From: Naegleria gruberi
Taxonomy: Eukaryota
Strand: one strand, 5' to 3'
NCBI GenBank assembly: GCA_000004985.1
Contig: GG738911.1
DNA: 64,000 nt
Part shown: piece after piece, positions 33,594-63,668 of the stretch
How the letters are laid out: each line of letters opens with the position of its first letter
Position numbering within the stretch: position 1 is the stretch's first letter
The notes under the pieces: generated by a model
Database searches by the model: none
What the model was told of the DNA's origin: nothing
What the model saw: only the letters and a program-made list of their open reading frames with translations
Program-made: the position numbers and the translations under genes

Positions 33594-33840
33594 TTTGTTG
33601 TTGTATTTTTTTGATGGATGTTTGGACACGGGAAGGAAGAAGCTGTCACTGATGGAACAAATGATTGGACAAATGAACTTGCAAGAGTTCCTTTAAAGTG
33701 GTGTGAGTGCAATTTTGGTAATTTCTCAAAGTGAGATAATTTGCAAGATTTTTTAAACAAATCAATTTGATCAACAAAATTAATTAATGGAAAATATTGA
33801 GACAATTAAATTGATTTAATGTTTTTCAATTATGTACATT

Positions 33841-38451: not shown

Positions 38452-40413
38452 ATGTTACCCACCTACTCATCGGAACGTCCCAATCAGCATTTACGTGGAC
38501 GAGGAAATAATGTAACATCTCCATCACCTTCATCTTCGTCATCTTCGTCATCATCACCATTGGAAAATAATTTATCTTCTGCATCATCATCAAATTTTGG
38601 CGCCAGAAAGTCCAAATGTTCAGGCAAGAAAATAGGCTGTTTAATAATAGGCTTGTTATTGCTCATCATTGCCTTGTATTGGTTGTTTAGTGTTGTGAGT
38701 GAGAATGTAATTATTGTTACGGATGATGATGCTGATAATGCTGTTGCAACAAATTTTAGGAATATTGCAGAATTGGATGGAAATGAAAATACTAATATTA
38801 AATCAGCATCGGAGAAGGATACTAAAACAAGCCTTAAAAAAGATAAGAAAGAGGAAGGTGATGAAAAGAAGGAGGAAATTGTACCACCACCTCCAATTGT
38901 TAAACGTAAGAAGAACAAACAAGAGAAACAACAAGATTTAATATTTGAAGAAATTGCTAAATTATTAACTAATCCAGATCAAACAAGCGAAGGATCCTAT
39001 GGATGGTATAGAAAACAATTAGATACTAATAATAGATTAGGTAATACTTTATTTGATGATCCTATAATGACTAAATTAGGATTTCAAGATACTCTTACCA
39101 CTAGTGAATTATTATTTTACTATTTTAGAACATTTAATACGACACAGGAATGTAGACAACAACATACATGTAAAATTTATGCAGATAGAACTGCAGGTGA
39201 ATTTTTGGAAGAGGGAACTCAATTGGATGCTGTTGTGCAACATTGTCAATATAAGGAACCTTACTTTTTAAATTCACATGAACAAGAATCCAAGAATTTG
39301 AATGTTTTTCATTCACTCATTACAAAATCAGATGATAATTTAAAGAATATTGACAAATTAGAAGTATCTAATGTTTTAGCACATTCTAATCATATGGATT
39401 ATTTATATGGAGAACAAATGTGGAGAGGAATGAGAAGATTATCAATTATCATGTGTAGTGAAGCTCGTGTTCATGATCTTGTTGGTCCAATAACACAAAA
39501 GAAGAATGATTACAAATCAATGCAAAGATTTTCAGATTCTACAGCTGACATTTCAATTTGTTTCCTTTCAACATGTTCTGTTTGGGTTAATTATCATTAT
39601 TGGCAATTATCTTTATCCAAATCAAATGAATTTGGAACTAAACCATTCAAAAACAATAAGGGAATTTGTGCTTTTATTTCAAATTGTGATCAAGCTGGTT
39701 GCACTGATTTAAAACAAAGATTTGAACTCTTGAATACACTCTCAAAATACATTCCAGTGAGACAATATGGTAAATGTGGAAAGAATGCACAAGAAGGACC
39801 AGGTGGTAAAACATTTGAAATTGAAAATAATTGTCGATTCTATTATGCAGCTGAAAATTCAATTGCCAAAGATTATGTTACTGAGAAATTCTTTGAAGGA
39901 GTAAGAGCTCTTCAAAATGGTGCCAGAGTAATTACATTATATAGAGGTGCTCCAAATTTGAGACAAGATTGGGGATTTCCAAAGTCTCTCTACTTGGATC
40001 ATAATGATTTTGAATCTGTGGATGCATTGGGTCAATACATGAAGAAATTGAATGATGATGACAATGCCTTTGAACGATGGTTCAACAAGATGACAATGCA
40101 AGAAAGAAAGAAGGTTGATAAGGTTTTAGATGGTTTCGAACATAGACTTGGAACTAATATTCCATGCAGAATTTGTGCCATTGTTGGTGAAATGAAATTA
40201 GCACGTTATTTATTATTTAAAATTGGATTGAAAACAACAACAGCAAAGGTCAATTGGTATGAATGGCAACAATTCAAAGCAGATAAGTTTGAAAATCTCT
40301 CCAAGGACAGACTTGCAATATTGGATCATATTTATGTGATGGCCTTTAATATTTTCCAAACTGAAAATAATAAGGCAAATAGATTTAATCTTGCTTGGGA
40401 TTTTAATAAGTAA
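38452..40413 (+). CDS. alpha-1,3-fucosyltransferase (GT10) paralog 2, type II membrane protein
   Basis: Same N-terminus MLPTYSSERPNQ as paralog 1, TM anchor IGCLIIGLLLLIIALYWLF, and the identical GT10 motif CRFYYAAENSIAKDYVTEKFFEG. It has a Ser-rich, acidic/basic N-terminal extension that paralog 1 lacks. Confidence 0.8.
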   Translation: MLPTYSSERPNQHLRGRGNNVTSPSPSSSSSSSSSPLENNLSSASSSNFGARKSKCSGKKIGCLIIGLLLLIIALYWLFSVVSENVIIVTDDDADNAVATNFRNIAELDGNENTNIKSASEKDTKTSLKKDKKEEGDEKKEEIVPPPPIVKRKKNKQEKQQDLIFEEIAKLLTNPDQTSEGSYGWYRKQLDTNNRLGNTLFDDPIMTKLGFQDTLTTSELLFYYFRTFNTTQECRQQHTCKIYADRTAGEFLEEGTQLDAVVQHCQYKEPYFLNSHEQESKNLNVFHSLITKSDDNLKNIDKLEVSNVLAHSNHMDYLYGEQMWRGMRRLSIIMCSEARVHDLVGPITQKKNDYKSMQRFSDSTADISICFLSTCSVWVNYHYWQLSLSKSNEFGTKPFKNNKGICAFISNCDQAGCTDLKQRFELLNTLSKYIPVRQYGKCGKNAQEGPGGKTFEIENNCRFYYAAENSIAKDYVTEKFFEGVRALQNGARVITLYRGAPNLRQDWGFPKSLYLDHNDFESVDALGQYMKKLNDDDNAFERWFNKMTMQERKKVDKVLDGFEHRLGTNIPCRICAIVGEMKLARYLLFKIGLKTTTAKVNWYEWQQFKADKFENLSKDRLAILDHIYVMAFNIFQTENNKANRFNLAWDFNK

Positions 40414-42765: not shown

Positions 42766-43503
42766 ATGCCAGCCATTAACGCTCACCTCCGTTCTGCTCA
42801 CGGTAAATTCTTGTGTATCGAACCATCCGGACAAGTTGTTGCCAACAGAGATGCCAATGGTCCATGGGAAACTTTAACTTTGATTCCATATGGTGGTAAC
42901 TATGTTTTCAGATCTGCTCACGGAAAGTATGTCTGTGCTGAACCATCTGGTTTGGTCATTGCTAACAGAGATGCTATTGGACCATGGGAACAATTTTCAT
43001 TGGTTCAATCTGGATCACATGTTGCATTCAGATCTGCTCATGGTAAATTGGTTTGTGCTGAACCAAGTGGTTTGGTTGTTGCTAATAGAGATGCTGTTGG
43101 TCCATGGGAACAATTCCACTTCTCATTGGCTCCAAATCAAACTATTGCTTTGAGACATGCTCATGGTCAATTGTTGTGTGCTGAATCTAATCACTCTGTT
43201 GTTGGTAATAGAAGTGCTGTTGGTCCTTGGGAAAACTTCCATGTTGAACATCATAGTGGTAAGAATGCTTTCAGATCTGCTCATGGTAAATTGATGTGTG
43301 CTGAACCAAGTGGTTTGTTGGTTGCTAACAGAGATGCTGTTGGTCCATGGGAACAATTCACTGTTGAATTGCACGGAAATGGTAATATTGCATTGAAGTC
43401 TGCTCACAATACCTACGTTTGTGTTGAACCAAGTGGTCAAATTGTTGTCAATAGAAGCGCTGTTGGTGCTTGGGAACAATTGTCTTTCAATCCACACTTT
43501 TAA
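42766..43503 (+). CDS. Six-fold ~40-aa repeat protein; hisactophilin/fascin-like beta-trefoil repeats (two predicted trefoils)
   Basis: Six copies of (F/L)RSAHGK(Y/L)(V/L)CAEPSGLV(I/V)ANRDA(V/I)GPWEQF. This resembles the HG.Y..A.....v.anr...g.WE.F sub-repeat of fascin/hisactophilin beta-trefoils. There is no signal peptide; high codon bias suggests strong expression. Confidence 0.6.
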   Translation: MPAINAHLRSAHGKFLCIEPSGQVVANRDANGPWETLTLIPYGGNYVFRSAHGKYVCAEPSGLVIANRDAIGPWEQFSLVQSGSHVAFRSAHGKLVCAEPSGLVVANRDAVGPWEQFHFSLAPNQTIALRHAHGQLLCAESNHSVVGNRSAVGPWENFHVEHHSGKNAFRSAHGKLMCAEPSGLLVANRDAVGPWEQFTVELHGNGNIALKSAHNTYVCVEPSGQIVVNRSAVGAWEQLSFNPHF

Positions 43504-45367: not shown

Positions 45368-46203
45368 AAAATAAAAATGAATAACAATTAAATATTATTT
45401 GTTTAAAATGAAAAAAGGAAAATTTCTTTGGTGAAATAGTTATATTAATAATTCAAATAAATTTAAAATTAATTTTCAGTCTGTTCTCTTCTAAATTCTT
45501 TATTTGATTGAATTAATTTGTTGAGCTGAATTTTCTCTGATATTCCAAAAGCTGTTGATTCCAACAACTAAGGGAGGTAGCAAGAGTGTTCACAAGCTAA
45601 AGACCACACTCTTTCTTTTAAAATATTTTGTTTTCGGTTCTTTCTTGGATGCTTCTAAAACATCGAGTGGTAAAATTTAAGTTCCTATTTTCACTAACAA
45701 TTGGAATAAGGTTGAACATTATTCTTATCAGGTACTTCAAATTCAATTTATTTCTTCAGATACCACTAATCTTGTAAGAGGAAATGCAATGAAGTAACAT
45801 TGGGATGACGATTATAGCAATTAAGATAATTCAAACCCTGATTGTTACACTGTAATAAAATCCTTTTCCAAAAATAATATCATTTCTCGAATTCTTTCAA
45901 AATGATTCATTGTAACAATGGATTTTGTTGGCAAAATTGCAAAACAAGATATGAGCTTTCTTTTTGGAATATCTTAAAATTGAATTTACTCTAATAGTTT
46001 ACTAATATATTTGGAGTTTAGTTTGATTTGTTTAATCCTACACTATAATCTTGTAATTGATATTGTAATTTCTAATAAAATATCCATTATATATGCGACA
46101 CCATCGCAAACATCCGTTCTTGTAATGGAAATAGGACGTTCTTTGGTCGTTCATTTTCTAATTATGCGCATGCATGTATTCTTTAATTCAACAACATTAA
46201 AAA

Positions 46204-48507
46204 ATGGTCAATAAATCAATGCTACCCTCACTACCACCATCATTAACAACTACCACCACTCCAACATCATCATCCTCATCCTCATCCTCCATAACAGCCT
46301 CATTAGTGTCACAACATTTTAGACCATTCAATAATATTAATAATCAATATGGAAATGAATGTTTATTATCACTTCCTACTTTACAATTACCATCATCATT
46401 TCATTCACAACAACAACAACACCACTCATCATCATTATATGATAATAGTAATACAATAATAGAACAACAACAACAACATTCATATCAACCTTATGATAGT
46501 TTTAATTTTACTACTACCAATAATACCAATAATAATAGTACTACAAATGGTGATACATTTTCATCATCAATTAATGCTCAAATATTATTTAATAATAATA
46601 ATAATTTGAATAATAATTTGAATAATAATAATAGTAATAATAATATTAAAATTGAGAATGATATAATTAGTAATAATAATAATGAAGATAATGTTGATAA
46701 TAGTGCTATTAATAATGATAATAATGAATTCCATCCAATATCATGTAATAATTGTAGACGTGTACACAAATTTTGCGGTATGTATATAGTAATTAATATT
46801 TTTAAAATATTTTTTTTTTAAATAGATAGAAAATTACCATCATGTGAAAGATGTTCAACTAAAGGAATGACATGTGAATATAAAATACCTAAGAGAATGA
46901 GATATCATAGATCTGATAAATCTGAAAAGAAACAAAAAATTGTAAATAATATTTCTACTACTATTAATAATAATACTATAAATAATAATACTTCCAATTA
47001 TATTAATAATAATATAAATAGTAATACTAATTTATTAAATAATAATAATAATAATTTAAATAATAATAATTTATCTAATTTAAATAATAATAATTTAAAT
47101 AATAATTTAAATATAAATTTAAATAAAAAATTAATAATACCAAATAAATTAAGTAAAAAACAAGTATTAGATTATTATTATTCATTACATAAAGATGAAA
47201 TATTTGATAAAAATTATTTTGAACAATTACTTTTAAAAAAATCCAAAGATGTAACATGTTTATTTTATTCAATGAAATTACTTGTTGAACAAAGGCTAGG
47301 AATATCATGTGATAAATCATTACAAAAATGTAAAGAATATCTATCTAAATATTTTGATCAAGTGTCAAATTTTTATATAGCCTACACTTATTTATGTTTA
47401 TGTGGATATGAATTTGGAAATGGAAAGAGAAATTTACAAAAATTTTATTTTCATGCCTCCAAGTCATATTTTCATGATAAAGATTTAAATGAATTAAATT
47501 CACATGAAAAAATACTTCATCAAAAATTATTTATATTTGAAATTTTAATTTCAGATTCTGAATTTGGATTAAGTTTAATTTCTAAAAATTATCCAAAATT
47601 ATTTGAATTTGTAACAAATTATAAATTACCAAATGAAATTGCATCTACTTTAGAACAAGAAGTAAATTCAACAAATTGTTTTGAAAAATTAAAAATTATT
47701 GAAATTGTACATTCATATATGGTAAATTATTTAGATAATAAACCTAATAATAATAATAATAATAATTCTAATAATAGTAATAAATCTAATAATAATTCTA
47801 ATAATAATTCTAATAATAAATCTAATAATAATAATAATGAAATTATATTATTTGAAGAATCTAAAATATATGAACAAGCCTTTAATAATATATTTTTAAA
47901 TGGTATGAGAATTGCATTATTAACAAAAGCAGGATATGGTGATTATGAAATGGTTGAAGATGCAGCTCTAAATATAACTTATTTAACAGAACATGAATCT
48001 TTCCAAATTTGTCCTGTTTTTGTTGTTTCATATATAGCATTAGCTAGTAGAGTACATTATCATATTGTTAAAAGAATTGAACAAGGATTAAGAAGTAATC
48101 ATTTAATTGGTTTATTAAATAATAATAATATTTTATTAAATTCAAATAATTTAAATGTATTATATCATTTATCTAATAATAATAATAATACTATAAATGG
48201 AAGTGGAAATGAAAATTTAATAAGAGGACCTGTTGATTATTATGAAATTATAGAAAAAGATTTAAATGCATTAAATACATTAAAAAAGAAATATAAATTA
48301 CCAGTTGAACATTATCAATCTCTTATTGATGATTTACAACATTTATTAAATAGATATAAAAATAATTTATTAAATAATAATTTATTAAATAATAATAATA
48401 ATTTATTATTAAATAGTAATTCAAGAATGGATACATATATTAGTTGTGATGATATTTTACAAATGTTATTATACAGTACTCCAAATACACCCAATTCAAT
48501 AAATTAA
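46204..48507 (+). CDS. Zn(II)2Cys6 (GAL4-type) binuclear-cluster transcription factor with long N-rich regions (two exons; intron 46778..46825)
   Basis: Exon 1 ends CNNCRRVHKFC|G, with a GTATGT donor and aaatag acceptor. Exon 2 continues (D)RKLPSCERCSTKGMTCEY, giving C-x2-C-x6-C-x6-C-x2-C-x6-C. The two ORF-track ORFs 46204..46821 and 46867..48507 join in frame. Confidence 0.7.
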
Positions 48508-48659
48508 TTTAAAATATTAAAATATTTAATGAAGGCTTTTAGTATCTTTTGTTCACCTTTTTAAAGATAAATTTCTTAATTTGTCCGTTCTCATTATTAT
48601 CCTTTTACTGCTGTGATGTATTAGTTGAGTTGTAGTAACAGTCACACACTACTGATGGA

Positions 48660-48834
48660 TTGAAAAAAATGTTACCAACATTTAATTCCTCAAATCTTCA
48701 CACTAGAAAGAGAGGAGATTTATCATCTTCATCGTCATCGTCATCTTCATCAAATCAACAACAACAACAACATTTTAAATCAAACAAGTCTAATTGTCTG
48801 AGTAAAATAGTTTATTTAATAATAGGCTTGTTAT
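48660..48834 (+). CDS. Third fucosyltransferase-family paralog, N-terminal fragment truncated by assembly gap
   Basis: MKKMLPTFNSSNLHTRKRG...poly-S...KIVYLIIGLL parallels the N-terminus and TM anchor of 38452..40413. Sequence after the gap is unrelated. Confidence 0.4.
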
Positions 48835-48884
48835 NNNNNNNNNNNNNNNNNNNNNNNNNNNNNNNNNNNNNNNNNNNNNNNNNN
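48835..48884. other. Assembly gap (50 N)
   Basis: Run of n. Confidence 0.99.
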
Positions 48885-50229
48885 ACTACTTATTAGAATA
48901 GTTATTGTTAAACTATTGAGAATAAGTTCCTAAGATGGCTCTTGAATAAATGCTTAGTTAGTAAAGTTCATAAATTAATGTTTCACTAAGAAGCTCATAA
49001 CCATACTTCCTTAGAACGCGAGTTACCGGCAATTGTTACCTACACCAACTCTAAATGTCAAATGTTTCAAAACATTAAAAAACACATCTTCACTGCATCG
49101 TTCCAAACTCCACACAAGAATCACCAAGATAAATCACCTCTGATGATATCAAAAATTTGAAGGAAAAAATTGATGATTATTTGGCACAATTAGTTGTTGA
49201 TCAACTTCCTTTTGCTAATCTTCAAGGTTATACTTCGCAATTCCTCCACCATCAAAGGAAGAAATTTAGATAAAGTATTATAGACCTGATGGTTATCCTG
49301 TGGGATGTAAGGAAAGATTCAATCTGCTGATGGAGATGTCGGATTTAATTATTATTTGAACAACCATTTTACTTTTGTTGTATTACCATGTTAGGACCAC
49401 AAGTTATTGTTGTTGCTGAAGTTAATCCAACTTATTTGCATTGTAAATAACTTCATAAACATCTCCATATCATTTAAAACAAAACAGACTAAAACTGTTG
49501 TGTTATAAATTGTGTTACGAGCGAAATTCCTAATGATATCCGACAACAACTTAGCAAAACAAATGAAATATAGAAAATTGGCATAGTTCTTATTTACCAG
49601 CCATATAAACTTTGGTAATTTACAAGATACCATTTAGTACCACATTATTACACTCAATTAATGAAACTATTGAGAAGCATGCGTATAGTAGATAATTCAA
49701 TGATACAACCATAACCAACTCTATTCTCGATAGTGTGATAATCATCTTCCTTACACAATTTACCGACGGAGAGGGCAATGATACCCTAAGACCTGAATAA
49801 CTGCACAATCACCAAAACACCAGATTACGATTAATGATTCACCCACATCCACAACAACAGTTACCATCAACAATTTTAGTAGCGAATAGTTGTGTTTGGT
49901 AGCAAGAATACACTATGTTGGTGGAAATATGACTGCACAACTTACCTTTATGAACCAAATGCATTATGCGTTTGTAAACGGTGTTGGCATTATTACATAC
50001 TTACGCTATCAAGTAATGGTTGTGATTATTTTTGTTCGCACATCACTTGTGCCCAACAGTATTTTTGAGGCTTAAAGTCGGTGGTTCACTTTTGATGTCA
50101 TCTTTTCAAAAGTGAGAGCAATATATGGAGCTAAAATGGTCGGCGCAGACCCCCACTTTGTTCTCAATGCCAGTTAGTATTTAACTAGTTCATTGATTGA
50201 TGGTTTGTTCAAAAATTTTACAAGTTCAA

Positions 50230-50523
50230 TTAAGGTTGACTTGGGTATATTCGAATATATGATTTAACCTTCTTTATAATATTACAATTTTTACTATTAG
50301 AATTCTTCCTCTTTATGCTGCTCTCCATTACCATCTTCCTCAATTTCTCCATCAGATTCTTGATGTTTAGACATCTTTCTCTTGGATGGATTTGAAATAG
50401 GCGTTTCATCATCTCATACTTGGCCTTTCTTTTCAACTCTTCCAATAATATTCCTTCTCTATTGAAAACATCTCCACGATAAGGACTCCGATTTTTCATC
50501 AAGATAATCCTCTTAAAATTCAT
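50230..50523 (-). CDS. Hypothetical small basic protein; possibly the terminal exon of a spliced gene
   Basis: 97-aa ORF (..SPYRGDVFNREGILLEELKRKAKYEMMKRL..). An upstream minus-strand ORF fragment at 50640..50810 ends at a perfect GTGAGT donor (50640 region). Confidence 0.3.
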   Translation of the reverse strand: MNFKRIILMKNRSPYRGDVFNREGILLEELKRKAKYEMMKRLFQIHPRERCLNIKNLMEKLRKMVMESSIKRKNSNSKNCNIIKKVKSYIRIYPSQP

Positions 50524-52614
50524 TAGAAAGTTCTAATAATTTCATCTTGCAATCGAACTGATCTCTTTTCCAATAAAGTATATGTTTCTTTTCAACTTTG
50601 AAGGCTACTCACCTTTCTCAACATCTCAACAAACATTAGCTTGAATTCGAAATACAATTGTTGTTGGGTTGAAAAGTTCTTTACTCGAAGCCTCTTTTCC
50701 ACCTTGTTGATTCTTGGTGGTCTTTGTGTTTTGAGATGATGTCTTTTTAGATGTTGCTGAGGGCTTCTCAGAAGATGATGAAGGCTGAGATAGATTCATA
50801 TCACTGAGTTAGAAAGCCTTTGTAGCTTCCATCACTTTGAAACGGAGACTACAATAGTCACAAGCTTAATCTATTGGTCTCTAATTCATCACAGAGACAG
50901 AGAGATGGTAAAATTGCAGCCATCAATTCAGAGTAAGTATATTGAATAATGATTGAGATCATTTCATACAGATGTCGTATCTCCCTTCACTACATGTTGA
51001 AGTGTCATTCCATTCCATTGAAATAGGTTTGTTATTAATTTTTCTCATATTAACCATTAATCATACTTGTTGTTATTGATAAAAGATGTGGAAAATCTAC
51101 TGGTTATTCACCACTACTATATTTATTCTCAATAATACTATTCTACTTTATGTTTCTATTTGTGGAACTTACTATACCACTTTCTAAATATCCATGGTTT
51201 CAAATCTAGTTTCAAATCTATTCATAATTAACAATCTAATTTCAAATCTATTGATGCTCTATAATTAATTAGATTAATAATCTACTCTGTTATATTTACA
51301 ATGTGTGACATCATTCAGCATGGTTAATATATTTACAAGTTAAAGTATAATTATTACAATAAAGTTTATTTATTTGAATTTCAAAGTTGGTCTTGTGTGA
51401 GTACTGTGTGAAAAAAGAAGTGAAAAGTGAGCCTTAAAAGATAACCCTTAACTAATTTAAAGACAGCACCCAACTTTTACTGTCCACTTTATAAAAGTTG
51501 AGGAAAAAGTTAGCCCCCAACTAGTTTACACATAACTTTCACACCTAAGAAGTGAAAGTTGGGTGCTAACTAGCCACCAACTTTTAAAAGTTGAATGCCT
51601 TATCCACACTATTGGCTACTACTTGGCTTCTGAAAAATAGCTGCAAATAATGTATTCGGGATTATTCAAAATAAACTTGTGGTAAGGAAACCATCTTGTC
51701 CATAATTCTCATTGATGAAAGAATTGCAAAGATGTCCCATTGTAATACTTTTAGTACCATTAACTGATTCTCCAATATATTTACAACCATAAATAGATTT
51801 TCCAATTACAGTTTGAAAATGCTAACATCCTCTAATTTTAATAATTGGAAACAATCCAAACAACCTTTCTATTAAGCATCAATTTGAACCTTTCCACATC
51901 AAGTTGATAGATTTCCTTGCCTGAAATGAACAATACTATAAAAATCTCACCCAACAACAGCATTCTGTTAAAAGGAATAATATTTCAAATAGCAAAAAAA
52001 TTACTCTAATTGCGTAGTTGCAATTCCAAACAATTAATTGACTGTAAAGGTGACATTGTCAACAGACAATTGTTTTAATTATTAGGAGTAGTAGTAGTAT
52101 TAGAAAATATTGTAAAGTTGTGCAAGGTAGGTAGGGTGTACTATCTTTAATGATCATTCAAATCAAGTATACAAATCACAAAAGTCAATTTTTATACAAA
52201 TTGAGAGTATTCTTCAAGTCATTGTTGGAAATTTCATCATCAACCCATTACATCAAAACAAAACCAATATTACTTACTATTAGAATAACTACAAGATGAA
52301 ATGGTGACTTTACAGTAATTATTACAATAATATTTAATTCAATCCAGTAATGAATTATTTAATTCAATCCACTAATGAATCAAATATTACTCACTCAATA
52401 CACCCGCATACGTACGTACCACCTTCAACAAGAATTATCCAATTTACAAGTCCAACCTTGTTAAAATTGGAAATTCTCAATAAGATTCGCTTCTAAAAAA
52501 GGAAAATTTGAGAAATCATCCCATTTAACTCAATCTGATATTTAATAATTCCTACTATTTCCTTCATAAAAAAGTACAAAATATCATCACAAGCCTAATA
52601 TTAATAATAACAAA

Positions 52615-53397
52615 ATGAAACAAGAGTATCAACAAGTATTTAATCCTAGGAATGCATCTTCTAATATTAATAAATATAATACTAATAATAATAATAACAA
52701 AATGTCATTCATTGATGAAACTAATAATGTAACATTAAAAGTAAAAGTGAATCAACGAAATAATAATATGCATATTAAACAATCAAGATTGAGAAAACCA
52801 TTACAAAATGATAAATTTCTATTAAATTATTTTGAATTTGATAAACAACAACATTCAAATGATTTAACTGTTTACAAAATTGTTAATATTACAAATAGTA
52901 GTACATCATCAGCACCACCATCATCAATAATTCCCAATGTTATTCAACAGTATCATCAAGGCTTGACTGCAATATCACCATCATCATTGGAATCTAATGA
53001 TTTCATTTCTAATAATTATGGTAATTGTAAAATTAGTAAGAATCATGGTAGAAGAAGATTATCAGTTGATAGTATTGTTACAACTGAGAAAGTTAAAGTT
53101 AAATCACCACTCTCTCCTCAAATTGTAAATTATTCTAATAATAATGAATCTAATTCAAGCAATGCTACCACCACCACTAATAGTAGTACTAGTACTAGTT
53201 GTAGTAGTAATGATTGTAATATAACTGATAGTAATGATAATTATTATTGGGATTTACTTCTTTCAGAATTACAACAGGAAGAAACCAAAGGCTTGGAGTC
53301 ATCATCTTCTCATCTTAATACACTTTGTACCACAACAACAACAAGTGAAGTAGACGCGAACAACGTACCATGTGATTGTCTTGCTCAAATATTTTGA
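52615..53397 (+). CDS. N/S-rich hypothetical protein
   Basis: 260-aa ORF with an A/T-rich upstream region. Low complexity (poly-N, S/T runs); no domain recognised. Confidence 0.4.
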   Translation: MKQEYQQVFNPRNASSNINKYNTNNNNNKMSFIDETNNVTLKVKVNQRNNNMHIKQSRLRKPLQNDKFLLNYFEFDKQQHSNDLTVYKIVNITNSSTSSAPPSSIIPNVIQQYHQGLTAISPSSLESNDFISNNYGNCKISKNHGRRRLSVDSIVTTEKVKVKSPLSPQIVNYSNNNESNSSNATTTTNSSTSTSCSSNDCNITDSNDNYYWDLLLSELQQEETKGLESSSSHLNTLCTTTTTSEVDANNVPCDCLAQIF

Positions 53398-54155
53398 GTG
53401 TTATCCATGTACAAGTTCTGAAGTTTACATATATGGCATAAAGTGATATCACACTAATAAAATTTCAAGCTTAAAAAAAAATAACGCACTTTCCCATTCT
53501 TCTGCATAAAATTGAGTGCCAAGTCACCCAATCCGTTCTTCTAAAACAATCAGGTTACCTAAACATGATGATCATCAACTGCCACAAACAATCAACAACT
53601 ACACTATCACCATATTATCACCAACAACAACAACATTATCATCAACATTAACAACTATCAACATGTGATGGATAATACATACACATCTAATAATTATTAT
53701 TAATTTAATAATAATAATAATTAAAATCAACAAGACTTGATGATCAACAACGGTTGTGCATGCATAACATCAACATCATGTTTAACAAACACATTTACAT
53801 TTGATGTTATGATACACATCTCGAATGTAAATGTACACAACAATATAATCACAATAACAACAACACTACTATTAACATATGATTAATTTTACATCATGAT
53901 GATTAACACATTTACATCTAGATGTTATCCACATACATCCTTTTTACAATCTAACATCTAATGCATGTAAAATGTGATGTGAATAATGTTGTACATGATG
54001 TTGCCGTTATTGAAGTCATTAATGATGAGTTGTGTCGTTGTATTATGTTGATATAAATGGTATTACACATATATGTATTTAACGAAAAAGAACTATATTA
54101 CTACTTTTTGTGAAATATTCGAACAGTTGTTGTTGTGTTGTGGATATTCGAAAAA

Positions 54156-54870
54156 ATGTTTAAACAACCTGTAGATGCTACTGACAACTTTGGAAATGAT
54201 CATCATCAACAAGTTAACTTGGAAGGTATAATTTTATTTTTTAAATATTTATATTAATAATTATTATTATCTACATTAAAAAATTTGAAAAATTTGAAAA
54301 TTATTTAGGATCATCAACATTACCAAATAATGATCAAATTATTGATGCATATAAATTATTGAATAATTTATTATTATTNNNNNNNNNNNNNNNNNNNNNN
54401 NNNNNNNNNNNNNNNNNNNNNNNNNNNNNNNNNNNNNNNNNNNNNNNNNNNNNNNNNNNNNNNNNNNNNNNNNNNNNNNNNNNNNNNNNNNNNNNNNNNN
54501 NNNNNNNNNNNNNNNNNNNNNNNNNNNNNNNNNNNNNNNNNNNNNNNNNNNNNNNNNNNNNNNNNNNNNNNNNNNNNNNNNNNNNNNNNNNNNNNNNNNN
54601 NNNNNNNNNNNNNNNNNNNNNNNNNNNNNNNNNNNNNNNNNNNNNNNNNNGTTACATTTAATAATATTATAAATAATAATTTAATTAATAATATTGTAGT
54701 ATATGATAATAATGATCAACAAGATAATTATTCATTACCTAAAGAAGAAGAAGAAGCAGATAATTTATTAAATATTGAAGATGAATCAATTTTCAATAAT
54801 ATTGAATTAAATAATGAAAGTGATGGTAATAGTTTTATCAGTTCATTTTCATTTCTATTTAAAGAATAAT
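54156..54870 (+). CDS. N-rich hypothetical gene X (two exons, intron 54226..54308; interrupted by N gap 54379..54650)
   Basis: MFKQPVDATDNFGNDHHQQVNLEG, then a GTATAA donor and ttatttag acceptor, then SSTLPNNDQIIDAYKLLNNLLL... After the gap it continues ...DNYSLPKEEEEADNLLNIEDESIFNNIELNNESDGNSFISSFSFLFKE*. Confidence 0.4.
54379..54650. other. Assembly gap (272 N)
   Basis: Run of n. Confidence 0.99.
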
Positions 54871-55385
54871 AAATTTATATTTAAACTTATTATAATCACC
54901 AAGGGATTCTATCAAATTTGTTAATAATCGTTTTACGCTAATGATTAGCAAGTAATATTGAGCCTACATGTTGAGATTCAAATGTGAGAATCCCTCAAGA
55001 ATTTGGACTCCATGTATCATGAACTTGGTTCCTTAATTTAAACATTAAGAAGGAGTGCCAACAGTGGTTGGTGACATGAAAGTCAAAACGACTGATTTAT
55101 TCACAATCACAGTTCTGACATGTAATTGCTGAATTGTGTTTTAGAGATTATGTTTTTATTTTCATGCCATGTTCGCACAATACAGCAATAGTACTATCGT
55201 CCGAATTCGTCATGAAATCTGGAATTGTCAATTATTTCTTTCTATTGTAGTGTATTGCTTCCGAGTTTCGTTCAATACAATTCAATACAAGGAAAGTATT
55301 ATTGGAAATATGAGAGTGGATGAAATAGAGGATGCAAGTTTCTTTTGCTTGATGCTCAGTTGAATATTCACAAAAAAACAACATT

Positions 55386-56375
55386 ATGATGAATAATAAC
55401 TCGACTTCAAGTTGGATAAATGAATTTTCCTCTACTGCTCATACCTGTTCAGTTGATGTTTTTTGTGGAATGGTCTCTCCATCATTCTCCAACAACAAGC
55501 CTTCAATAACAATGAACAATACAATTACAGATGATGAATGTATTGAACCAAGTCTAAATCTTGATGTTATTGATTTTATTCAGAGTTGGGAATTATTAAA
55601 GATGATGACAACTCCAAAGCAACAATTATTTAATAGAAAGCCTTTTGACAAGCCTTCTATTCACCAAATGTCAGCCTTCAATAATATCCAATGTACTAAA
55701 ATCACCTCAACTGTTATGAATTCTATTGATGCTGATATTAAGTGCACTCCATCACACTCATCCACATGCCATATTGTATTACCATCACCAACTGAGACAT
55801 TATCTCTACTGACACTTAACACCTCACCATCTCCTCATCAGCAACCCTTCAATGCTAATACTATTGAAAATAGCCTGACCAATACCATTTCTAATACTGA
55901 CATTGCTGATAAGGTACTTTTAACCAATTTAGAATCATATCAATTTCCCAAGAATCCTTATCATGAACATTATGATCAATCACCACCACCATCAAATGAT
56001 ATATCCATGATGCCACTCCAACAACAAACTAATGTAAACAATACATTCAACAAGAAGGATGATAATCGTATTCTAAAGAGAAAGAGAAAGATTTCTAATG
56101 TATCTTCATTCGAATCAGAAAAGAGAAAAACCTCAATTTCATCCACCACACCACCTACAACATGTTCAAGTAATTCATCCTCAATTGGTAATAATAGTTC
56201 ATTATCAACAAATGTGCACTCACAACAATCATTCAATAATTGTATTATAATTTCAAATCCAAAACATTTGAAAAGAAGAAGAAAATATCAAAAGAGAAAG
56301 AATTCAGCCAATACAAATCCTGCTCAAACTCAAATGGAATTTCACTTTCCAGTTTGGACTTTTCATTTAGAATAA
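55386..56375 (+). CDS. Lineage-specific protein family Y, member 1 (S/T/N-rich, basic NLS-like C-terminus)
   Basis: MMNNNSTSSWINEFSSTAHTCSVDVFCGMV...KRKRKISNVSSFESEKRKTS...NPKHLKRRRKYQKRKNSANTNPAQTQMEFHFPVWTFHLE*. Confidence 0.6.
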   Translation: MMNNNSTSSWINEFSSTAHTCSVDVFCGMVSPSFSNNKPSITMNNTITDDECIEPSLNLDVIDFIQSWELLKMMTTPKQQLFNRKPFDKPSIHQMSAFNNIQCTKITSTVMNSIDADIKCTPSHSSTCHIVLPSPTETLSLLTLNTSPSPHQQPFNANTIENSLTNTISNTDIADKVLLTNLESYQFPKNPYHEHYDQSPPPSNDISMMPLQQQTNVNNTFNKKDDNRILKRKRKISNVSSFESEKRKTSISSTTPPTTCSSNSSSIGNNSSLSTNVHSQQSFNNCIIISNPKHLKRRRKYQKRKNSANTNPAQTQMEFHFPVWTFHLE

Positions 56376-56430
56376 ATTGTTTTTTTAATAATATTTGTTT
56401 TATATTCTCTGTGTGTCCGAATAATTTAAT

Positions 56431-56550
56431 ATTCAACAAGATAATTATTCATTACCACTTGAAGAAGCAGATAATTTATTAAATATTGAAGATGAACCAA
56501 TTTTCAATTTTATTGAATTAAATAATGAAAGTGAAAATAAACTTCTGTAA
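56431..56550 (+). pseudogene. Duplicated 3'-terminal fragment of gene X (relic carried along by the tandem duplication)
   Basis: caacaagataattattcattacc...gaagaagcagataatttattaaatattgaagatgaaccaattttcaatt matches 54720-54800. It has no upstream exon context and ends in a different stop after ESENKLL. Confidence 0.4.
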
Positions 56551-56947
56551 AGAATATACAATTTATGATCAAGTAATAGTGAGATTGTATAATTTCGAAA
56601 TACGATGAACCAGAATTTACCCTAACACTTACTGACATTCTATTAAGAAGGAGTGCCACAGCTGACGACATGAAAGAACTGTAATTGTTTAAGAGATTTT
56701 ATTCGCACTGTACAACAATAGAACTATCGTCCGAATTAGTCATGAAATCTAGGAATTGTAGATTATTTCTTTCTATTGTTGGGTATTGCTTCAGGATTTT
56801 GTATTTTTAAGGACCTCAATTACTAACATTATTCTTCAAGTACATCAAGTATTGGAAATATGAGAGAATAAATTGGGCGAGATGCAATTCTCTTTGGAGT
56901 TTATGCAGAAGAAATATTCAATGAATATTCTCAAAAAAACAAACATT

Positions 56948-57937
56948 ATGATGAGCAATAACTTGACTTCAAGTTGGATAAATGAATATTCCTCTCCTGC
57001 TCATACCTGTACAGTTGATGTTCTTTGTGGAATGGTCACTCAATTTTCATCATCATTCTCAAACTACTCAATTAACAATCAATGTATTGAACCAAGTCTA
57101 AATCTTGATGTTATTGAGTTTATGCAGAGTTGGGAATTATTAAAGATGATGACAACTCCAAAGCAACAATTATTTAATAGACAGCCTGTTGACAAGCCTT
57201 CTATTCAACAAATGTCAGCCTTCAATAATATCCAATGTACTAACATCAGCTCAACAGTTATGAATTCTATTGATGATCATGATGATGATATGAAGGACAC
57301 TCCACCACACTTATCCAAATCCCATATTGTATTTCCATCACCTCAACCATCAACTCAACTGTTCCTATCACCAACAAAAACATTATCTCTGACTCTTAAC
57401 ACCTCATCTCCTCATCAGCAACCATTCAATAACCATAACGAAAATAGCCTGACCAATACCATTTCTAATACTGACACTGCTGATCAAGTACTTTTAACCA
57501 ATTTAGAATCATATCAATTTCTGATGAGCATTAAGAATCCTTATCAACAATATGTGGATCAATCACCACCATCATCATCAATTGAAATATCCATGATGCC
57601 ACTCCAACAACAAACTAATGTAAACAATACATTCAATGATAATCGTATTCTAAAGAGAAAGAGAAAGATTTCTAATGTATCTTCATTCGAATCAGAAAAG
57701 AGAAAAACCTCAAGTTCATCCTCCTCATCATCTACAAGTAATGTATCCTCAATTGGTAATAACAGTTCATTATCAACAACATTCAAAACTCCACTCAATA
57801 ATTGTATTGTAATTTCAAATCCAAAACATTTGAAAAGAAGAAGAAAATATCAAAAGAGAAAGAATTCAGCCAATACAAATCCAGCTCAAACTCAAATGGA
57901 ATTTCATTTTCCAGTATGGACATTTCATTTAGAATAA
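56948..57937 (+). CDS. Lineage-specific protein family Y, member 2
   Basis: MMSNNLTSSWINEYSSPAHTCTVDVLCGMV... The C-terminus matches member 1 exactly (KHLKRRRKYQKRKNSANTNPAQTQMEFHFPVWTFHLE*). The start is taken at the ATGATG matching member 1; the ORF-track start at 56873 lies in non-conserved sequence. Confidence 0.6.
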   Translation: MMSNNLTSSWINEYSSPAHTCTVDVLCGMVTQFSSSFSNYSINNQCIEPSLNLDVIEFMQSWELLKMMTTPKQQLFNRQPVDKPSIQQMSAFNNIQCTNISSTVMNSIDDHDDDMKDTPPHLSKSHIVFPSPQPSTQLFLSPTKTLSLTLNTSSPHQQPFNNHNENSLTNTISNTDTADQVLLTNLESYQFLMSIKNPYQQYVDQSPPSSSIEISMMPLQQQTNVNNTFNDNRILKRKRKISNVSSFESEKRKTSSSSSSSSTSNVSSIGNNSSLSTTFKTPLNNCIVISNPKHLKRRRKYQKRKNSANTNPAQTQMEFHFPVWTFHLE

Positions 57938-58465
57938 ATTGTTTTTTTAATCATATTTGTATGCAATATTCTCAAGACATGTAGTTTTCGGTTGTGTGTG
58001 AGCATCAAGTTGTGGATCCACAACACAGCCTAGCAGCAATGGAACCTCGGCACGGATACCCATAAGTAAATAAACCATGGAATCTCAAAGTTACATTGTT
58101 CACTTTAATACTCACATTTCAGAAAAGAGACCATTCTATAATTTGCAAAAGATCATTTCAAGATTCCAGATAACAATCAGAAAGAATATTCTCGTTATCT
58201 AGTTACATTTTAACATAGAGATTGGAAGTTTCAAATTTCTTAATTGTACGGAATGGAAACGCATCTTCAAACTGAGTTTTTTATTCATGAAGTTTTGCAT
58301 GATAAATGGTTAGATATCCTTAATATTTTTGTTAAATTTCCATTTTTAGTATATAGATTAAAAGGCTTCACTGAAATCTGCATGTTATAAACAGTAACAA
58401 TTTCACGAAAGTAAACCATACCAAACACAATATAGAAAGAAAACACACAACGAATATTCTATCCA

Positions 58466-58984
58466 ATGAATTCAAACAAACAATCGAATAGAAGAAAGTC
58501 TAAAGCACTCAAATTAACTGTTGTTGATTTTTGTTCTTCCAATCCAACATCAACAACAACTAGAAGATCTAACAATGATCATGCTGATGTTGTTGATGAT
58601 AATTGTAAAGTAATGACAAGTAAATATACAGAATACTTTTCAAATAATTCAAAGCCTTTCCAAGTCATTTCATTTCCATTCAAGCCTTCGAATACTTGCT
58701 CATCTGGAATTCAAAAACAACCAAAGAAAAAGAGAATTGAATCGCATCATGATGATCAATTTGGTAAAATACAATTTGGTAATAATAATACAGTTTGTAG
58801 TGGTGGCGGAGGTGATGATTCAGTAGTGGCAAGCCTTCATCAAGATCGAATTGAAGAATCGTCTTCTAATGATCAGCAGCAGCCTTCAACACCAACTTTA
58901 ATTCAATCATTACCATCAATGGATAAAAAAAGACAAAGAAGAACCTCAATTACTATTAGAGAATTATTAAATTATGATGATTAA
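58466..58984 (+). CDS. Hypothetical protein (172 aa), S/N-rich with basic patches
   Basis: ORF MNSNKQSNRRKSKALKLTVVDF...KKRQRRTSITIRELLNYDD*. Unknown function. Confidence 0.4.
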   Translation: MNSNKQSNRRKSKALKLTVVDFCSSNPTSTTTRRSNNDHADVVDDNCKVMTSKYTEYFSNNSKPFQVISFPFKPSNTCSSGIQKQPKKKRIESHHDDQFGKIQFGNNNTVCSGGGGDDSVVASLHQDRIEESSSNDQQQPSTPTLIQSLPSMDKKRQRRTSITIRELLNYDD

Positions 58985-59390
58985 TGCCAGATCGTGAGAT
59001 GAAAATTTTAAGGATTTGGCAATTATTGAATAAAGACTTGATGTTATTTGAAAAGATTTCAAAGTTGGTTCAATCCTCAATCTCCAGACGTGGCCTACCA
59101 ACCTTATTAAAAGATGAAATACATTGAGGATTCGAATATTTTCTTCTAATTTTTGTTGCTGTAAAATGAAGAGCGGGAAAATTATTCTCAACACACTTTC
59201 TATTTTAAATCCATTCAAAAGTCCATAATGCTCCTTTAAAGATATTCCACTCTTTGATTGCAGGTTTTAATCTTTGATGACTTTCAATATTAATTATAAC
59301 ACACGAGTTCAGTTCATCAATTAATTGTTAAATATTGGCGCATGTGGAGCTGCATGTATAGCATGTATTTCATTGTTATCCGACATGAGA

Positions 59391-62300
59391 NNNNNNNNNN
59401 NNNNNNNNNNNNNNNNNNNNNNNNNNNNNNNNNNNNNNNNNNNNNNNNNNNNNNNNNNNNNNNNNNNNNNNNNNNNNNNNNNNNNNNNNNNNNNNNNNNN
59501 NNNNNNNNNNNNNNNNNNNNNNNNNNNNNNNNNNNNNNNNNNNNNNNNNNNNNNNNNNNNNNNNNNNNNNNNNNNNNNNNNNNNNNNNNNNNNNNNNNNN
59601 NNNNNNNNNNNNNNNNNNNNNNNNNNNNNNNNNNNNNNNNNNNNNNNNNNNNNNNNNNNNNNNNNNNNNNNNNNNNNNNNNNNNNNNNNNNNNNNNNNNN
59701 NNNNNNNNNNNNNNNNNNNNNNNNNNNNNNNNNNNNNNNNNNNNNNNNNNNNNNNNNNNNNNNNNNNNNNNNNNNNNNNNNNNNNNNNNNNNNNNNNNNN
59801 NNNNNNNNNNNNNNNNNNNNNNNNNNNNNNNNNNNNNNNNNNNNNNNNNNNNNNNNNNNNNNNNNNNNNNNNNNNNNNNNNNNNNNNNNNNNNNNNNNNN
59901 NNNNNNNNNNNNNNNNNNNNNNNNNNNNNNNNNNNNNNNNNNNNNNNNNNNNNNNNNNNNNNNNNNNNNNNNNNNNNNNNNNNNNNNNNNNNNNNNNNNN
60001 NNNNNNNNNNNNNNNNNNNNNNNNNNNNNNNNNNNNNNNNNNNNNNNNNNNNNNNNNNNNNNNNNNNNNNNNNNNNNNNNNNNNNNNNNNNNNNNNNNNN
60101 NNNNNNNNNNNNNNNNNNNNNNNNNNNNNNNNNNNNNNNNNNNNNNNNNNNNNNNNNNNNNNNNNNNNNNNNNNNNNNNNNNNNNNNNNNNNNNNNNNNN
60201 NNNNNNNNNNNNNNNNNNNNNNNNNNNNNNNNNNNNNNNNNNNNNNNNNNNNNNNNNNNNNNNNNNNNNNNNNNNNNNNNNNNNNNNNNNNNNNNNNNNN
60301 NNNNNNNNNNNNNNNNNNNNNNNNNNNNNNNNNNNNNNNNNNNNNNNNNNNNNNNNNNNNNNNNNNNNNNNNNNNNNNNNNNNNNNNNNNNNNNNNNNNN
60401 NNNNNNNNNNNNNNNNNNNNNNNNNNNNNNNNNNNNNNNNNNNNNNNNNNNNNNNNNNNNNNNNNNNNNNNNNNNNNNNNNNNNNNNNNNNNNNNNNNNN
60501 NNNNNNNNNNNNNNNNNNNNNNNNNNNNNNNNNNNNNNNNNNNNNNNNNNNNNNNNNNNNNNNNNNNNNNNNNNNNNNNNNNNNNNNNNNNNNNNNNNNN
60601 NNNNNNNNNNNNNNNNNNNNNNNNNNNNNNNNNNNNNNNNNNNNNNNNNNNNNNNNNNNNNNNNNNNNNNNNNNNNNNNNNNNNNNNNNNNNNNNNNNNN
60701 NNNNNNNNNNNNNNNNNNNNNNNNNNNNNNNNNNNNNNNNNNNNNNNNNNNNNNNNNNNNNNNNNNNNNNNNNNNNNNNNNNNNNNNNNNNNNNNNNNNN
60801 NNNNNNNNNNNNNNNNNNNNNNNNNNNNNNNNNNNNNNNNNNNNNNNNNNNNNNNNNNNNNNNNNNNNNNNNNNNNNNNNNNNNNNNNNNNNNNNNNNNN
60901 NNNNNNNNNNNNNNNNNNNNNNNNNNNNNNNNNNNNNNNNNNNNNNNNNNNNNNNNNNNNNNNNNNNNNNNNNNNNNNNNNNNNNNNNNNNNNNNNNNNN
61001 NNNNNNNNNNNNNNNNNNNNNNNNNNNNNNNNNNNNNNNNNNNNNNNNNNNNNNNNNNNNNNNNNNNNNNNNNNNNNNNNNNNNNNNNNNNNNNNNNNNN
61101 NNNNNNNNNNNNNNNNNNNNNNNNNNNNNNNNNNNNNNNNNNNNNNNNNNNNNNNNNNNNNNNNNNNNNNNNNNNNNNNNNNNNNNNNNNNNNNNNNNNN
61201 NNNNNNNNNNNNNNNNNNNNNNNNNNNNNNNNNNNNNNNNNNNNNNNNNNNNNNNNNNNNNNNNNNNNNNNNNNNNNNNNNNNNNNNNNNNNNNNNNNNN
61301 NNNNNNNNNNNNNNNNNNNNNNNNNNNNNNNNNNNNNNNNNNNNNNNNNNNNNNNNNNNNNNNNNNNNNNNNNNNNNNNNNNNNNNNNNNNNNNNNNNNN
61401 NNNNNNNNNNNNNNNNNNNNNNNNNNNNNNNNNNNNNNNNNNNNNNNNNNNNNNNNNNNNNNNNNNNNNNNNNNNNNNNNNNNNNNNNNNNNNNNNNNNN
61501 NNNNNNNNNNNNNNNNNNNNNNNNNNNNNNNNNNNNNNNNNNNNNNNNNNNNNNNNNNNNNNNNNNNNNNNNNNNNNNNNNNNNNNNNNNNNNNNNNNNN
61601 NNNNNNNNNNNNNNNNNNNNNNNNNNNNNNNNNNNNNNNNNNNNNNNNNNNNNNNNNNNNNNNNNNNNNNNNNNNNNNNNNNNNNNNNNNNNNNNNNNNN
61701 NNNNNNNNNNNNNNNNNNNNNNNNNNNNNNNNNNNNNNNNNNNNNNNNNNNNNNNNNNNNNNNNNNNNNNNNNNNNNNNNNNNNNNNNNNNNNNNNNNNN
61801 NNNNNNNNNNNNNNNNNNNNNNNNNNNNNNNNNNNNNNNNNNNNNNNNNNNNNNNNNNNNNNNNNNNNNNNNNNNNNNNNNNNNNNNNNNNNNNNNNNNN
61901 NNNNNNNNNNNNNNNNNNNNNNNNNNNNNNNNNNNNNNNNNNNNNNNNNNNNNNNNNNNNNNNNNNNNNNNNNNNNNNNNNNNNNNNNNNNNNNNNNNNN
62001 NNNNNNNNNNNNNNNNNNNNNNNNNNNNNNNNNNNNNNNNNNNNNNNNNNNNNNNNNNNNNNNNNNNNNNNNNNNNNNNNNNNNNNNNNNNNNNNNNNNN
62101 NNNNNNNNNNNNNNNNNNNNNNNNNNNNNNNNNNNNNNNNNNNNNNNNNNNNNNNNNNNNNNNNNNNNNNNNNNNNNNNNNNNNNNNNNNNNNNNNNNNN
62201 NNNNNNNNNNNNNNNNNNNNNNNNNNNNNNNNNNNNNNNNNNNNNNNNNNNNNNNNNNNNNNNNNNNNNNNNNNNNNNNNNNNNNNNNNNNNNNNNNNNN

Positions 62301-62761
62301 NNNNNNNNNNNNNNNNNNNNNNNNNNNNNNNNNNNNNNNNNNNNNNNNNNNNNNNNNNNNNNNNNNNNNNNNNNNNNNNNNNNNNNNNNNNNNNNNNNNN
62401 NNNNNNNNNNNNNNNNNNNNNNNNNNNNNNNNNNNNNNNNNNNNNNNNNNNNNNNNNNNNNNNNNNNNNNNNNNNNNNNNNNNNNNNNNNNNNNNNNNNN
62501 NNNNNNNNNNNNNNNNNNNNNNNNNNNNNNNNNNNNNNNNNNNNNNNNNNNNNNNNNNNNNNNNNNNNNNNNNNNNNNNNNNNNNNNNNNNNNNNNNNNN
62601 NNNNNNNNNNNNNNNNNNNNNNNNNNNNNNNNNNNNNNNNNNNNNNNNNNNNNNNNNNNNNNNNNNNNNNNNNNNNNNNNNNNNNNNNNNNNNNNNNNNN
62701 NNNNNNNNNNNNNNNNNNNNNNNNNNNNNNNNNNNNNNNNNNNNNNNNNNNNNNNNNNNNN
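59391..62761. other. Assembly gap (3371 N)
   Basis: Run of n. The three >1100-aa ORF-track entries across it are artefacts. Confidence 0.99.
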
Positions 62762-62763
62762 AT

Positions 62764-63081
62764 AATGAAAATACTACCACGCTCAATACCATACCAATAA
62801 TCAATAATCAGAAGAAGAGAAAGATTTCCTCTTCCTTCAAATATTATACAAGTCCAAATACAGAAAAGAAGAAGAAAATCTCAATTTCATCCACTTCTAT
62901 TACTACTTCATCTTGTCATTGTTCAAATAATGTATTTTGTGAATTATCTTGTAATTGTATTGTAAATTCAAATCCAAAACATTTGAAAAGAAGAGAATAT
63001 CAAAAGAGAAAGACCTATTCAAATTCAGCACAAGCTCAAATGGAATTTAATTTTCCAATATGGACTTTTCATTTGGAATAA
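62764..63081 (+). CDS. Family Y member 3, C-terminal fragment (N-terminus lost in gap)
   Basis: ...NENTTTLNTIPIINNQKKRKISSSFKYYTSPNTEKKKKISISSTS...NPKHLKRREYQKRKTYSNSAQAQMEFNFPIWTFHLE*; the frame is continuous from the gap edge. Confidence 0.5.
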   Translation, partial: NENTTTLNTIPIINNQKKRKISSSFKYYTSPNTEKKKKISISSTSITTSSCHCSNNVFCELSCNCIVNSNPKHLKRREYQKRKTYSNSAQAQMEFNFPIWTFHLE

Positions 63082-63668
63082 ATTGGTTAATAATTGTAAA
63101 ATTATTCAAAGCCTTCCATAATTCAATTCTCAATATTCATCAATTCGTTTGATTATTAAATAGTTGGCTGATGAGAAATTAGGTACATTCAAGCCTTTGA
63201 TTAATATTCAGGTAGGAAATCCGTATAATCATAGATGATTTCCTATGCCTTGCAGCGGAATACAAATTAGCAACAAACAATATACTACTATAGTAAGTAC
63301 CATTATTGCTAGCAGCACAAATAATATTCGGATTGTACACAATTAAAAATCGTGGCACCTGTGTTTTCCCATTTTTTATAAATATTTTTATTAATTACAA
63401 GTAATAAATACATGTGTCAATTAATTGTGTTGTTTGTTGTTGTTGTTGATGGTGAGTGTGCAACGATAACGAATTCAATTTTCAACTCTGCAAGTTCGGG
63501 AATAAAAGAAAACAAATCAAATAAAAAGTTGAATGGATGACGTGAGCTAATTTAATCTATTTGGAAGTTTTACATGTTTAATAATGGTCTTAATTCAGTG
63601 ACTGACTTCATAAATAGAAATGTAATGATGCTACTCTATTGACTTTTTCATTCGAATAAGAGATTCTT

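Follow-up and report, generated by a model that had tools for sequence, protein, structure and literature searches.

The 64,000-nucleotide (nt) stretch of contig GG738911.1 of Naegleria gruberi NEG-M that was analysed here (the window) carries three same-strand paralogs of an orphan protein family, named copies 1, 2 and 3 (c1, c2 and c3). Their cluster is an ordinary outcome of genome evolution, a young tandem duplication in a small protist orphan family. c1 and c2 are adjacent paralogs on the same strand whose homology runs into the flanks, and c3 lies on that strand about 5 kb downstream. An earlier note on this DNA had described a tandem lineage-specific family with co-duplicated upstream DNA and a gene-fragment relic, and both the alignments and the profile searches support this description. 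We are highly confident in the evolutionary account, the tandem duplication of a lineage-limited family. The explanation as a whole, which combines this duplication history with the inferred role of the proteins, is probable. The array is mixed with other genes: an annotated but unrelated one separates c2 from c3, and another probably lies in the assembly gap between them.

Paralogs and shared motifs

The three paralogs lie where they had been placed before, and the open reading frames (ORFs) and tblastn within the window agree on their positions (Table 1). c1 and c2 match each other with E=2e-148 and are 73-81% identical. Both match c3 with E of about 5e-18 to 5e-19, and in the within-window tblastn no further ORF falls below E 0.004. 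Between c1 and c2, 7.5% of the aligned coding sequence (CDS) positions differ, insertions and deletions (indels) add up to 34 codons, and large deletions set the flanks apart. c1 is 100% identical to EFC38100, whose annotation begins at an internal Met (287 amino acids, aa), and c2 is 100% identical to EFC38101, which is annotated 22 codons longer (351 aa). These two, EFC38102 and EFC38099 (a 260-aa ORF at 52615..53397) are annotated merely as 'predicted protein'. The C-terminus KHLKRR(R)KYQKRK...MEF(H/N)FP(V/I)WTFHLE, reported as shared, is present in all three copies. Two further motifs that had been assigned to every copy hold for c1 and c2. The KRKRKIS block is found in both of these, but c3 reads KKRKIS; the SSWINE N-terminus is seen in c1 and c2 only, because the 5' part of c3 falls within the gap.

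Table 1. Coordinates of the duplication units, genes and gap in the cluster
Feature	Position	Strand	Description	Basis or annotation
Gene X	54157..54869	+	small N-rich gene; short intron at about 54226-54309; stop codon at 54867-54869	read from sequence
Unit 1	54710..56409	+	gene X 3' end, intergenic/promoter DNA, c1 and about 34 nt of 3' flank	blastn, global alignment vs unit 2
Duplicated 5' flank of c1 (putative promoter and leader)	55172..55385	+	87% to 56702-56947	
Copy 1 (c1)	55386..56375	+	intron-less ORF, 329 aa	EFC38100 / NAEGRDRAFT_74200
Unit 2	56427..57973	+	relic, shortened intergenic region, c2 and 3' flank	blastn, global alignment vs unit 1
Gene X relic	56427..56550	+	start codon absent; 6-nt deletion; diverged tail with early stop	blastn, global alignment, tblastn
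Copy 2 (c2)	56948..57937	+	329 aa from the start common with c1	EFC38101 / NAEGRDRAFT_53310
orf172	58466..58984	+	172 aa, basic, Ser-rich, unrelated to the family	exact match to EFC38102 / NAEGRDRAFT_74202
Assembly gap	59391..62761	.	3371 N; inferred contents: about 90 codons of the c3 5' part and a P0020-like gene	
Copy 3 (c3)	62764..63081	+	3' 105 codons and stop; cut by the N gap	older paralog

Structure and origin of the duplication units

Two duplication units can be inspected. In blastn, 55172-56409 aligns with 56702-57973 in a single unbroken alignment of 1.33 kb (80% identity including gaps), and a second, separate match of 114 nt pairs 54710-54823 with 56427-56534. In the ungapped columns of a global alignment of the two units, identity is 92.5% in the CDS, 87.3% in the 214 nt 5' of the ATG and 92.6% in the gene X relic. 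The distal intergenic DNA of unit 2 is heavily deleted, with gaps in 160 of 302 columns. On the left the homology starts about 12 nt into the final gene X exon; on the right it stops about 34 nt 3' of the c1 stop, and unit 2 begins right there (56427).

Gene X is interrupted by a 272-N gap at 54379-54650. Its last exon runs from about 54699, with the acceptor near 54698, and P0006, the gene X model of the twin scaffold described below, aligns to 54687-54851 of the window. A truncated relic of the gene X tail had been reported at 56431..56550, and it is indeed there, from 56427 to 56550. It is 88% identical to 54710-54823 in blastn, ends with an in-frame stop at 56548-56550 and is matched by tblastn of P0006 at 56428-56535.

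A simple segmental event, the head-to-tail duplication of a segment of about 1.6-1.7 kb (54710-56409), produced this arrangement. The left breakpoint was within the last exon of gene X and the right one about 35 nt beyond the c1 stop codon. Unit 2 opens with a 3' fragment of gene X because the left breakpoint hit that exon; this promoter-less tail is useless, and is followed by the intergenic region with its promoter and then by a complete gene. After the duplication the relic shed 6 nt and its final 15 or so codons, while c1 and c2 diverged to a synonymous divergence (dS) of about 0.14. The cluster is a clean, datable case, in a free-living protist, of a partial tandem duplication that yielded an additional gene, a second promoter and a dead gene fragment. 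It has no bearing on any long-standing open question.

It had been stated that each duplication unit carries the relic and an upstream block; this is true of the two units, and no third unit is open to inspection. The upstream noncoding block had been described as a conserved element of about 85 bp. The match is present (55172-55271 vs 56702-56802, 84-90% identity), but it belongs to a continuous alignment and is no separate element. It is the stretch of the duplicated 5' flank least damaged by indels. Nor is the block extra-conserved. The 87% identity of the 5' flank is the synonymous-site level of c1 and c2 (dS 0.142, about 13% difference), and a search 5' of the related genes in the metagenome sequences L001-L003 gave no counterpart of the c1 flank; there is therefore no sign of constraint beyond shared ancestry. 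A conserved regulatory element beyond a duplication remnant was rejected on these grounds. The duplicated block may plausibly act as a core promoter.

A 19-nt inverted repeat (AATATTCACAAAAAAACAA / TTGTTTTTTTAATAATATT, 84% complementary) flanks both genes, at 55363-55381 / 56377-56395 for c1 and at 56924-56942 / 57939-57957 for c2, with its arms immediately before the ATG and immediately after the stop. The repeat is based on A7/T7 runs and probably reflects chance or a generic leader and trailer composition.

Coding status, selection and age

Judged from their sequences, the family ORFs are real coding genes under selection. c1 and c2 are both intact, have exactly 329 codons and share an MM(N/S)NN start after an A-rich leader. 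Eleven of the 15 CDS indels between them are multiples of 3 and the remainder compensate each other, while 8 of 29 are multiples of 3 in the noncoding flanks. The ratio of nonsynonymous to synonymous divergence (dN/dS, or omega) of c1 and c2 is 0.77 overall and exceeds 1 in two 60-codon windows. Across the last 46 codons it is 0.05, and the invariant C-terminal motif is under strong purifying selection. Against the orthologues of a second Naegleria, known from a metagenome, the ratio is 0.3-0.6 for the whole gene and 0.2-0.25 for the C-terminal module. The dS of c1 and c2 (0.14) is lower than that of the metagenome orthologue pairs (0.28-0.40, a comparison based on about 85 codons), so the duplication postdates the split of both organisms.

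Extent of the family

A hidden Markov model of the family retrieved 5 proteins from 1.84 billion cluster representatives, and a profile search of 5.8 billion proteins retrieved 6 clusters at 90% identity with 12 sequences in total. All matches belong to NEG-M or to a single ENA metagenome sample, ERZ929261. The JGI metagenome contigs searched for relatives gave none, nor did the 2.9 million contigs of IMG/VR. By the collections searched, the family is limited to N. gruberi and one very close relative.

In NEG-M the family comprises four types: c1, c2, c3 and EFC40497, a dispersed member of 188 aa whose scaffold is 342 kb long. The metagenome Naegleria has three family genes, which resemble c1/c2 (L002), c3 (L001) and EFC40497 (L003). 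Between both organisms the dispersed member is conserved at 96% identity. In blastp against the metagenome counterparts, identity is about 58-63% for c3 and about 42-46% for c1 and c2, lower than for the dispersed member, and the clustered genes therefore evolve much faster. The Naegleria pangenome includes 10,380 accessory genes, among them species-specific genes whose function is mostly unknown (PMC9928731). The cluster resembles tandem-duplicated orphan families in its adjacent same-strand paralogs, its co-duplicated promoter, the truncated piece of a neighbouring gene at the junction, the fast evolution of its proteins and the lack of homologues beyond a narrow lineage. Unlike such families in general, it combines an extremely conserved 45-residue C-terminal module with a freely evolving body.

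Twin scaffolds and copy number

A 243,952-bp NEG-M scaffold repeats the series in accession order: EFC38149, EFC38150 (c2'), EFC38151 (orf172'), EFC38152 and EFC38153 (c3'). Its gene layout was inferred from this accession order. EFC38149 is a fused model that contains the 260-aa gene, gene X and c1'. Identity between twin and window is 99.7% for c1, 95.4% for c2, 99% for orf172, 98.1% for c3 (EFC38153) and 95.3% for the 260-aa gene. A third version of c1, 97% identical to the window copy, lies on a 13-kb (13,371-bp) scaffold, and the dispersed member has a 97% twin on a 6.8-kb (6,848-bp) scaffold. Window genes at 24.8, 31.9 and 38.5 kb are without such a twin, so the redundancy begins between 40 and 52.6 kb.

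Naegleria has been described as mainly heterozygous diploid (PMC9928731). The twin scaffolds are most simply read as separately assembled haplotypes, but they could also stem from a recent segmental duplication. The three versions of c1 hint at more than two haplotypes, through polyploidy, aneuploidy or an extra segmental duplicate in NEG-M. Since c1 and c2 are each closer to their own twin than to each other, the c1/c2 pair predates the origin of the twin scaffolds. Annotated copy numbers exceed the haploid family size, because near-identical twins stand on other scaffolds. The NEG-M annotation has further problems here, with wrong starts for EFC38100 and EFC38101 and the three-gene fusion model of 798 aa in EFC38149.

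Protein features and possible function

The family members are hydrophilic, with isoelectric points of 8.5-9.9, and Ser, Asn and Thr make up about 35% of their residues; these basic, Ser/Asn/Thr-rich proteins are predicted to be intrinsically disordered. In the 10-sequence alignment 26 columns are invariant, nearly all of them in the last 45 residues. The C-terminal block reads C..SN..HL.RRRKY.KRKN.A..NPAQ..MEFxFPxWTFHxE-COOH. Conservation in the alignment extends to an N-terminal motif, LxLDVxDF.QSWELL, and to a central KKRK cluster with a serine tract after it. All members have FxFP and one or two basic K[KR]x[KR] clusters (KRKRK and KRRRK in c1 and c2, KKRK in c3). The invariant C-terminal motif defines an uncharacterised motif family that can be named and tested.

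AlphaFold2 models of two members, made with the 5- and 10-sequence alignments, have a mean predicted local distance difference test (pLDDT) score of 45 and 49, too low for a fold search. The sole regular element of at least 4 residues that both models share is the N-motif helix (pLDDT about 86 in P0010). In the models the C-terminus is coil, with pLDDT 58-69.

The earlier remark that no known domain is recognisable stands. In the Pfam scan of all members no family reached threshold and only low-complexity matches to SR-25 appeared, and a 10-sequence profile searched against the PDB chain sequences gave no match at E<=10. SR-25 (PF10500), a nuclear family associated with RNA splicing, resembles these proteins in its Lys/Arg/Ser-rich stretch, and 7 of the 10 members match it weakly over the basic/serine region. 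Membership was rejected. The gathering threshold is 40 bits and the scores are 10-20 bits (9.8 for c1, 14.9 for c2 and at best 19.7, for P0010), the match is limited to the composition-biased part, and SR-25 is without the N- and C-motifs of the family. A bZIP-type factor was also rejected: the protein ends 25 residues past the basic cluster, heptad leucines are absent and there is no Pfam bZIP match.

Three short conserved modules would do the work in these proteins: an acidic amphipathic helix, the KKRK-type cluster or clusters with the serine tract, and the C-terminus. The clusters and the serine tract would act as nuclear-import signals. The likeliest role for such a protein is that of a nuclear adaptor or transcription co-regulator, which would use the helix and the C-terminal motif to dock on a conserved partner and have a freely evolving linker. 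By analogy, a body that evolves fast and is probably disordered, with short constrained modules in it, is typical of partner-docking proteins, and the basic clusters appear to fit classical nuclear-import signals. We propose nuclear localisation and motif-mediated binding, taken jointly, as a tentative role that falls somewhat short of likely; any specific binding partner would be a doubtful choice.

Acidic amphipathic activation or docking helices of the FxxxWxxL type include the helix of the first transactivation domain of p53 (TAD1), which binds MDM2. The family N-motif, DF(I/V/M)(Q/K)SW(E/K)(L/I/C)L, similarly places F/I, W and L at i, i+4 and i+7, stands in an acidic context and is the sole confidently predicted helix. 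It differs from p53 TAD1 in that there is no sequence homology, that the likeness is a three-residue spacing pattern only, and that no Naegleria partner is known.

Alternative explanations

The region is broken by gaps, and c1, c2, c3, orf172 and the 260-aa upstream gene have near-identical twins on the 244-kb scaffold, with the third c1 version on the 13-kb scaffold (95-99.7% identity). Both facts could suggest that the array is an assembly artefact in which one gene or two alleles were set side by side. This is extremely improbable. c1 and c2 differ from each other by the substitutions, the 34 indel codons and the large flank deletions given above, and each is far closer to its own twin (99.7% and 95.4%) than to the other (73-81%). 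A single-gene artefact, which the earlier note had named as the outcome that would overturn its claim, is excluded for c1 versus c2, given these closer twins and the divergence. The genes might instead be decaying or non-functional, either as pseudogenes or as spurious ORFs of AT-rich DNA, and the dN/dS of 0.77, its excess over 1 in two windows, the missing known domain and the lack of expression evidence in the literature search all point that way. However, the ORFs are intact in four paralog types and in the second organism, the net frame is kept despite 15 indels, dN/dS in the C-terminal module is 0.05-0.25, and the dispersed member is 96% identical between both organisms; decay is improbable. 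Giant-virus or mobile-element ancestry would account for the missing cellular homologues, and we judge it very improbable. In its favour, the scanned window ORFs from 46 to 63 kb (those of at least 150 aa, the family and orf172) have no Pfam domain, and PMC12344493 describes or cites both viral insertions in other amoebae and a giant virus infecting Naegleria. But no relative was found in IMG/VR or in the protein collections, no terminal repeats surround the units except A/T-run matches, and the composition matches the rest of the window. Three subtypes have orthologues in the second Naegleria, which is consistent with vertical descent.

For the proteins, a different role is conceivable. FxFP is the consensus of the DEF motif, a docking site for MAP kinases. 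If the invariant C-terminal FxFP were a DEF-type site for ERK, the family would consist of MAP-kinase substrates or scaffolds. As in DEF sites, F-x-F-P is invariant near the C-terminus (10 of 10 aligned members), and c1 and P0009 have a second Y/F-Q-F-P in mid-protein. Unlike DEF sites, the family has no conserved S/T-P acceptor in the stretch 6-20 residues ahead of FxFP, where R/K, N, A and Q are invariant, and the 20 residues before FxFP (RRRKYQKRKNSANTNPAQTQME) are without S/T-P in any member. FxFP is also embedded in the longer invariant block MEFxFPxWTFHxE and more probably belongs to some other, larger interface, so that a MAP-kinase role is quite unlikely. A bolder version of the nuclear reading would make these proteins recently born nuclear regulators of the N. 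gruberi clade, in which the C-terminal block would be an undescribed docking or nucleic-acid module, combined with a TAD-like FxxxWxxL helix, and the array genes would be diversifying under relaxed or positive selection, in line with their much faster divergence between both Naegleria than that of the dispersed member. This version is unlikely. Several points weigh against even the tentative role and the lineage restriction preferred here. Absence from other Naegleria species depends on whether the searched collections include their proteomes. Low AlphaFold confidence is weak evidence of disorder, because the alignments hold 5-10 sequences. Clusters that resemble nuclear localisation signals are frequent in basic low-complexity proteins and are not proof of nuclear import. 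The dN/dS of 0.77 between c1 and c2 could mean that, except at the C-terminus, one copy is gradually losing its function. A search of the literature and its supplements by locus tag and accession found no paper citing the tags of these genes and no expression, localisation or interaction data.

The neighbouring gene and the gap

The earlier note had overlooked orf172, the annotated unrelated gene between c2 and c3. Its product carries KKKR and KKRQRR clusters and a C-terminal TSITIRELLNYDD. A fourth, diverged member of the family was rejected for this gene, as the hhalign probability against the family profile is 0.6% and there is no BLAST relation. In noncoding DNA that is otherwise unalignable between both Naegleria, a 32-nt exact match (CTTTTCAAATAACATCAAGTCTTTATTCAAT and one further matching base) pairs window 59024-59055 on the minus strand with L001 901-932 on the plus strand, in inverted orientation relative to the c3-type gene. 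The match is single-copy in the window, where the plus strand holds AATAAA about 45 nt past the orf172 stop.

The N gap of about 3.4 kb reported between copies 2 and 3 is present, with 3371 N. It had been suggested to hide further copies; synteny with L001 and the accession order of the twin make this less likely than a content of the c3 5' part and one unrelated gene. In L001 a 149-aa ORF lies immediately upstream of the c3-type gene. Its NEG-M homologue is P0020 (181 aa, 72% identity), which is absent from the visible part of the window. On the twin scaffold a single annotated gene stands between orf172' and c3' (accession order EFC38151-38153). This gene, EFC38152, is a candidate P0020 homologue. 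A c3-type protein has about 197 aa (P0003) against 105 visible codons, so about 90 c3 codons are missing. The gap would thus be largely accounted for by one unrelated gene and the 5' part of c3, and further family copies inside it are unlikely.

The wider window

Rfam and tRNA scans of 52-64 kb gave no RNA genes. In the Pfam scan of about 46200-63100, no domain was found in the scanned 205-, 546- and 260-aa ORFs, gene X (as its twin counterpart), c1, c2, orf172 or c3, and this part of the window looks like a local run of orphan genes. The genes upstream of about 46200 have ordinary domains (fascin/FRG1, GT47, GT10, DUF4116 and pyridine-nucleotide oxidoreductase). The two GT10 fucosyltransferase-like genes (18171-19631 and 38940-40403) are 80% identical paralogs of about the age of c1 and c2. 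Residues 390-450 of P0006 (61 aa) match the 38.4-kb fucosyltransferase in its stem region (window 38860-39039) at 80% identity, which suggests another partial-gene duplication, possibly within the 54379-54650 gap. Internal tandem repeats of 70-84% identity occur within ORFs at 33479-34677 and 42793-43481, and those at 42.8-43.5 kb are repeated fascin/FRG1-like domains.

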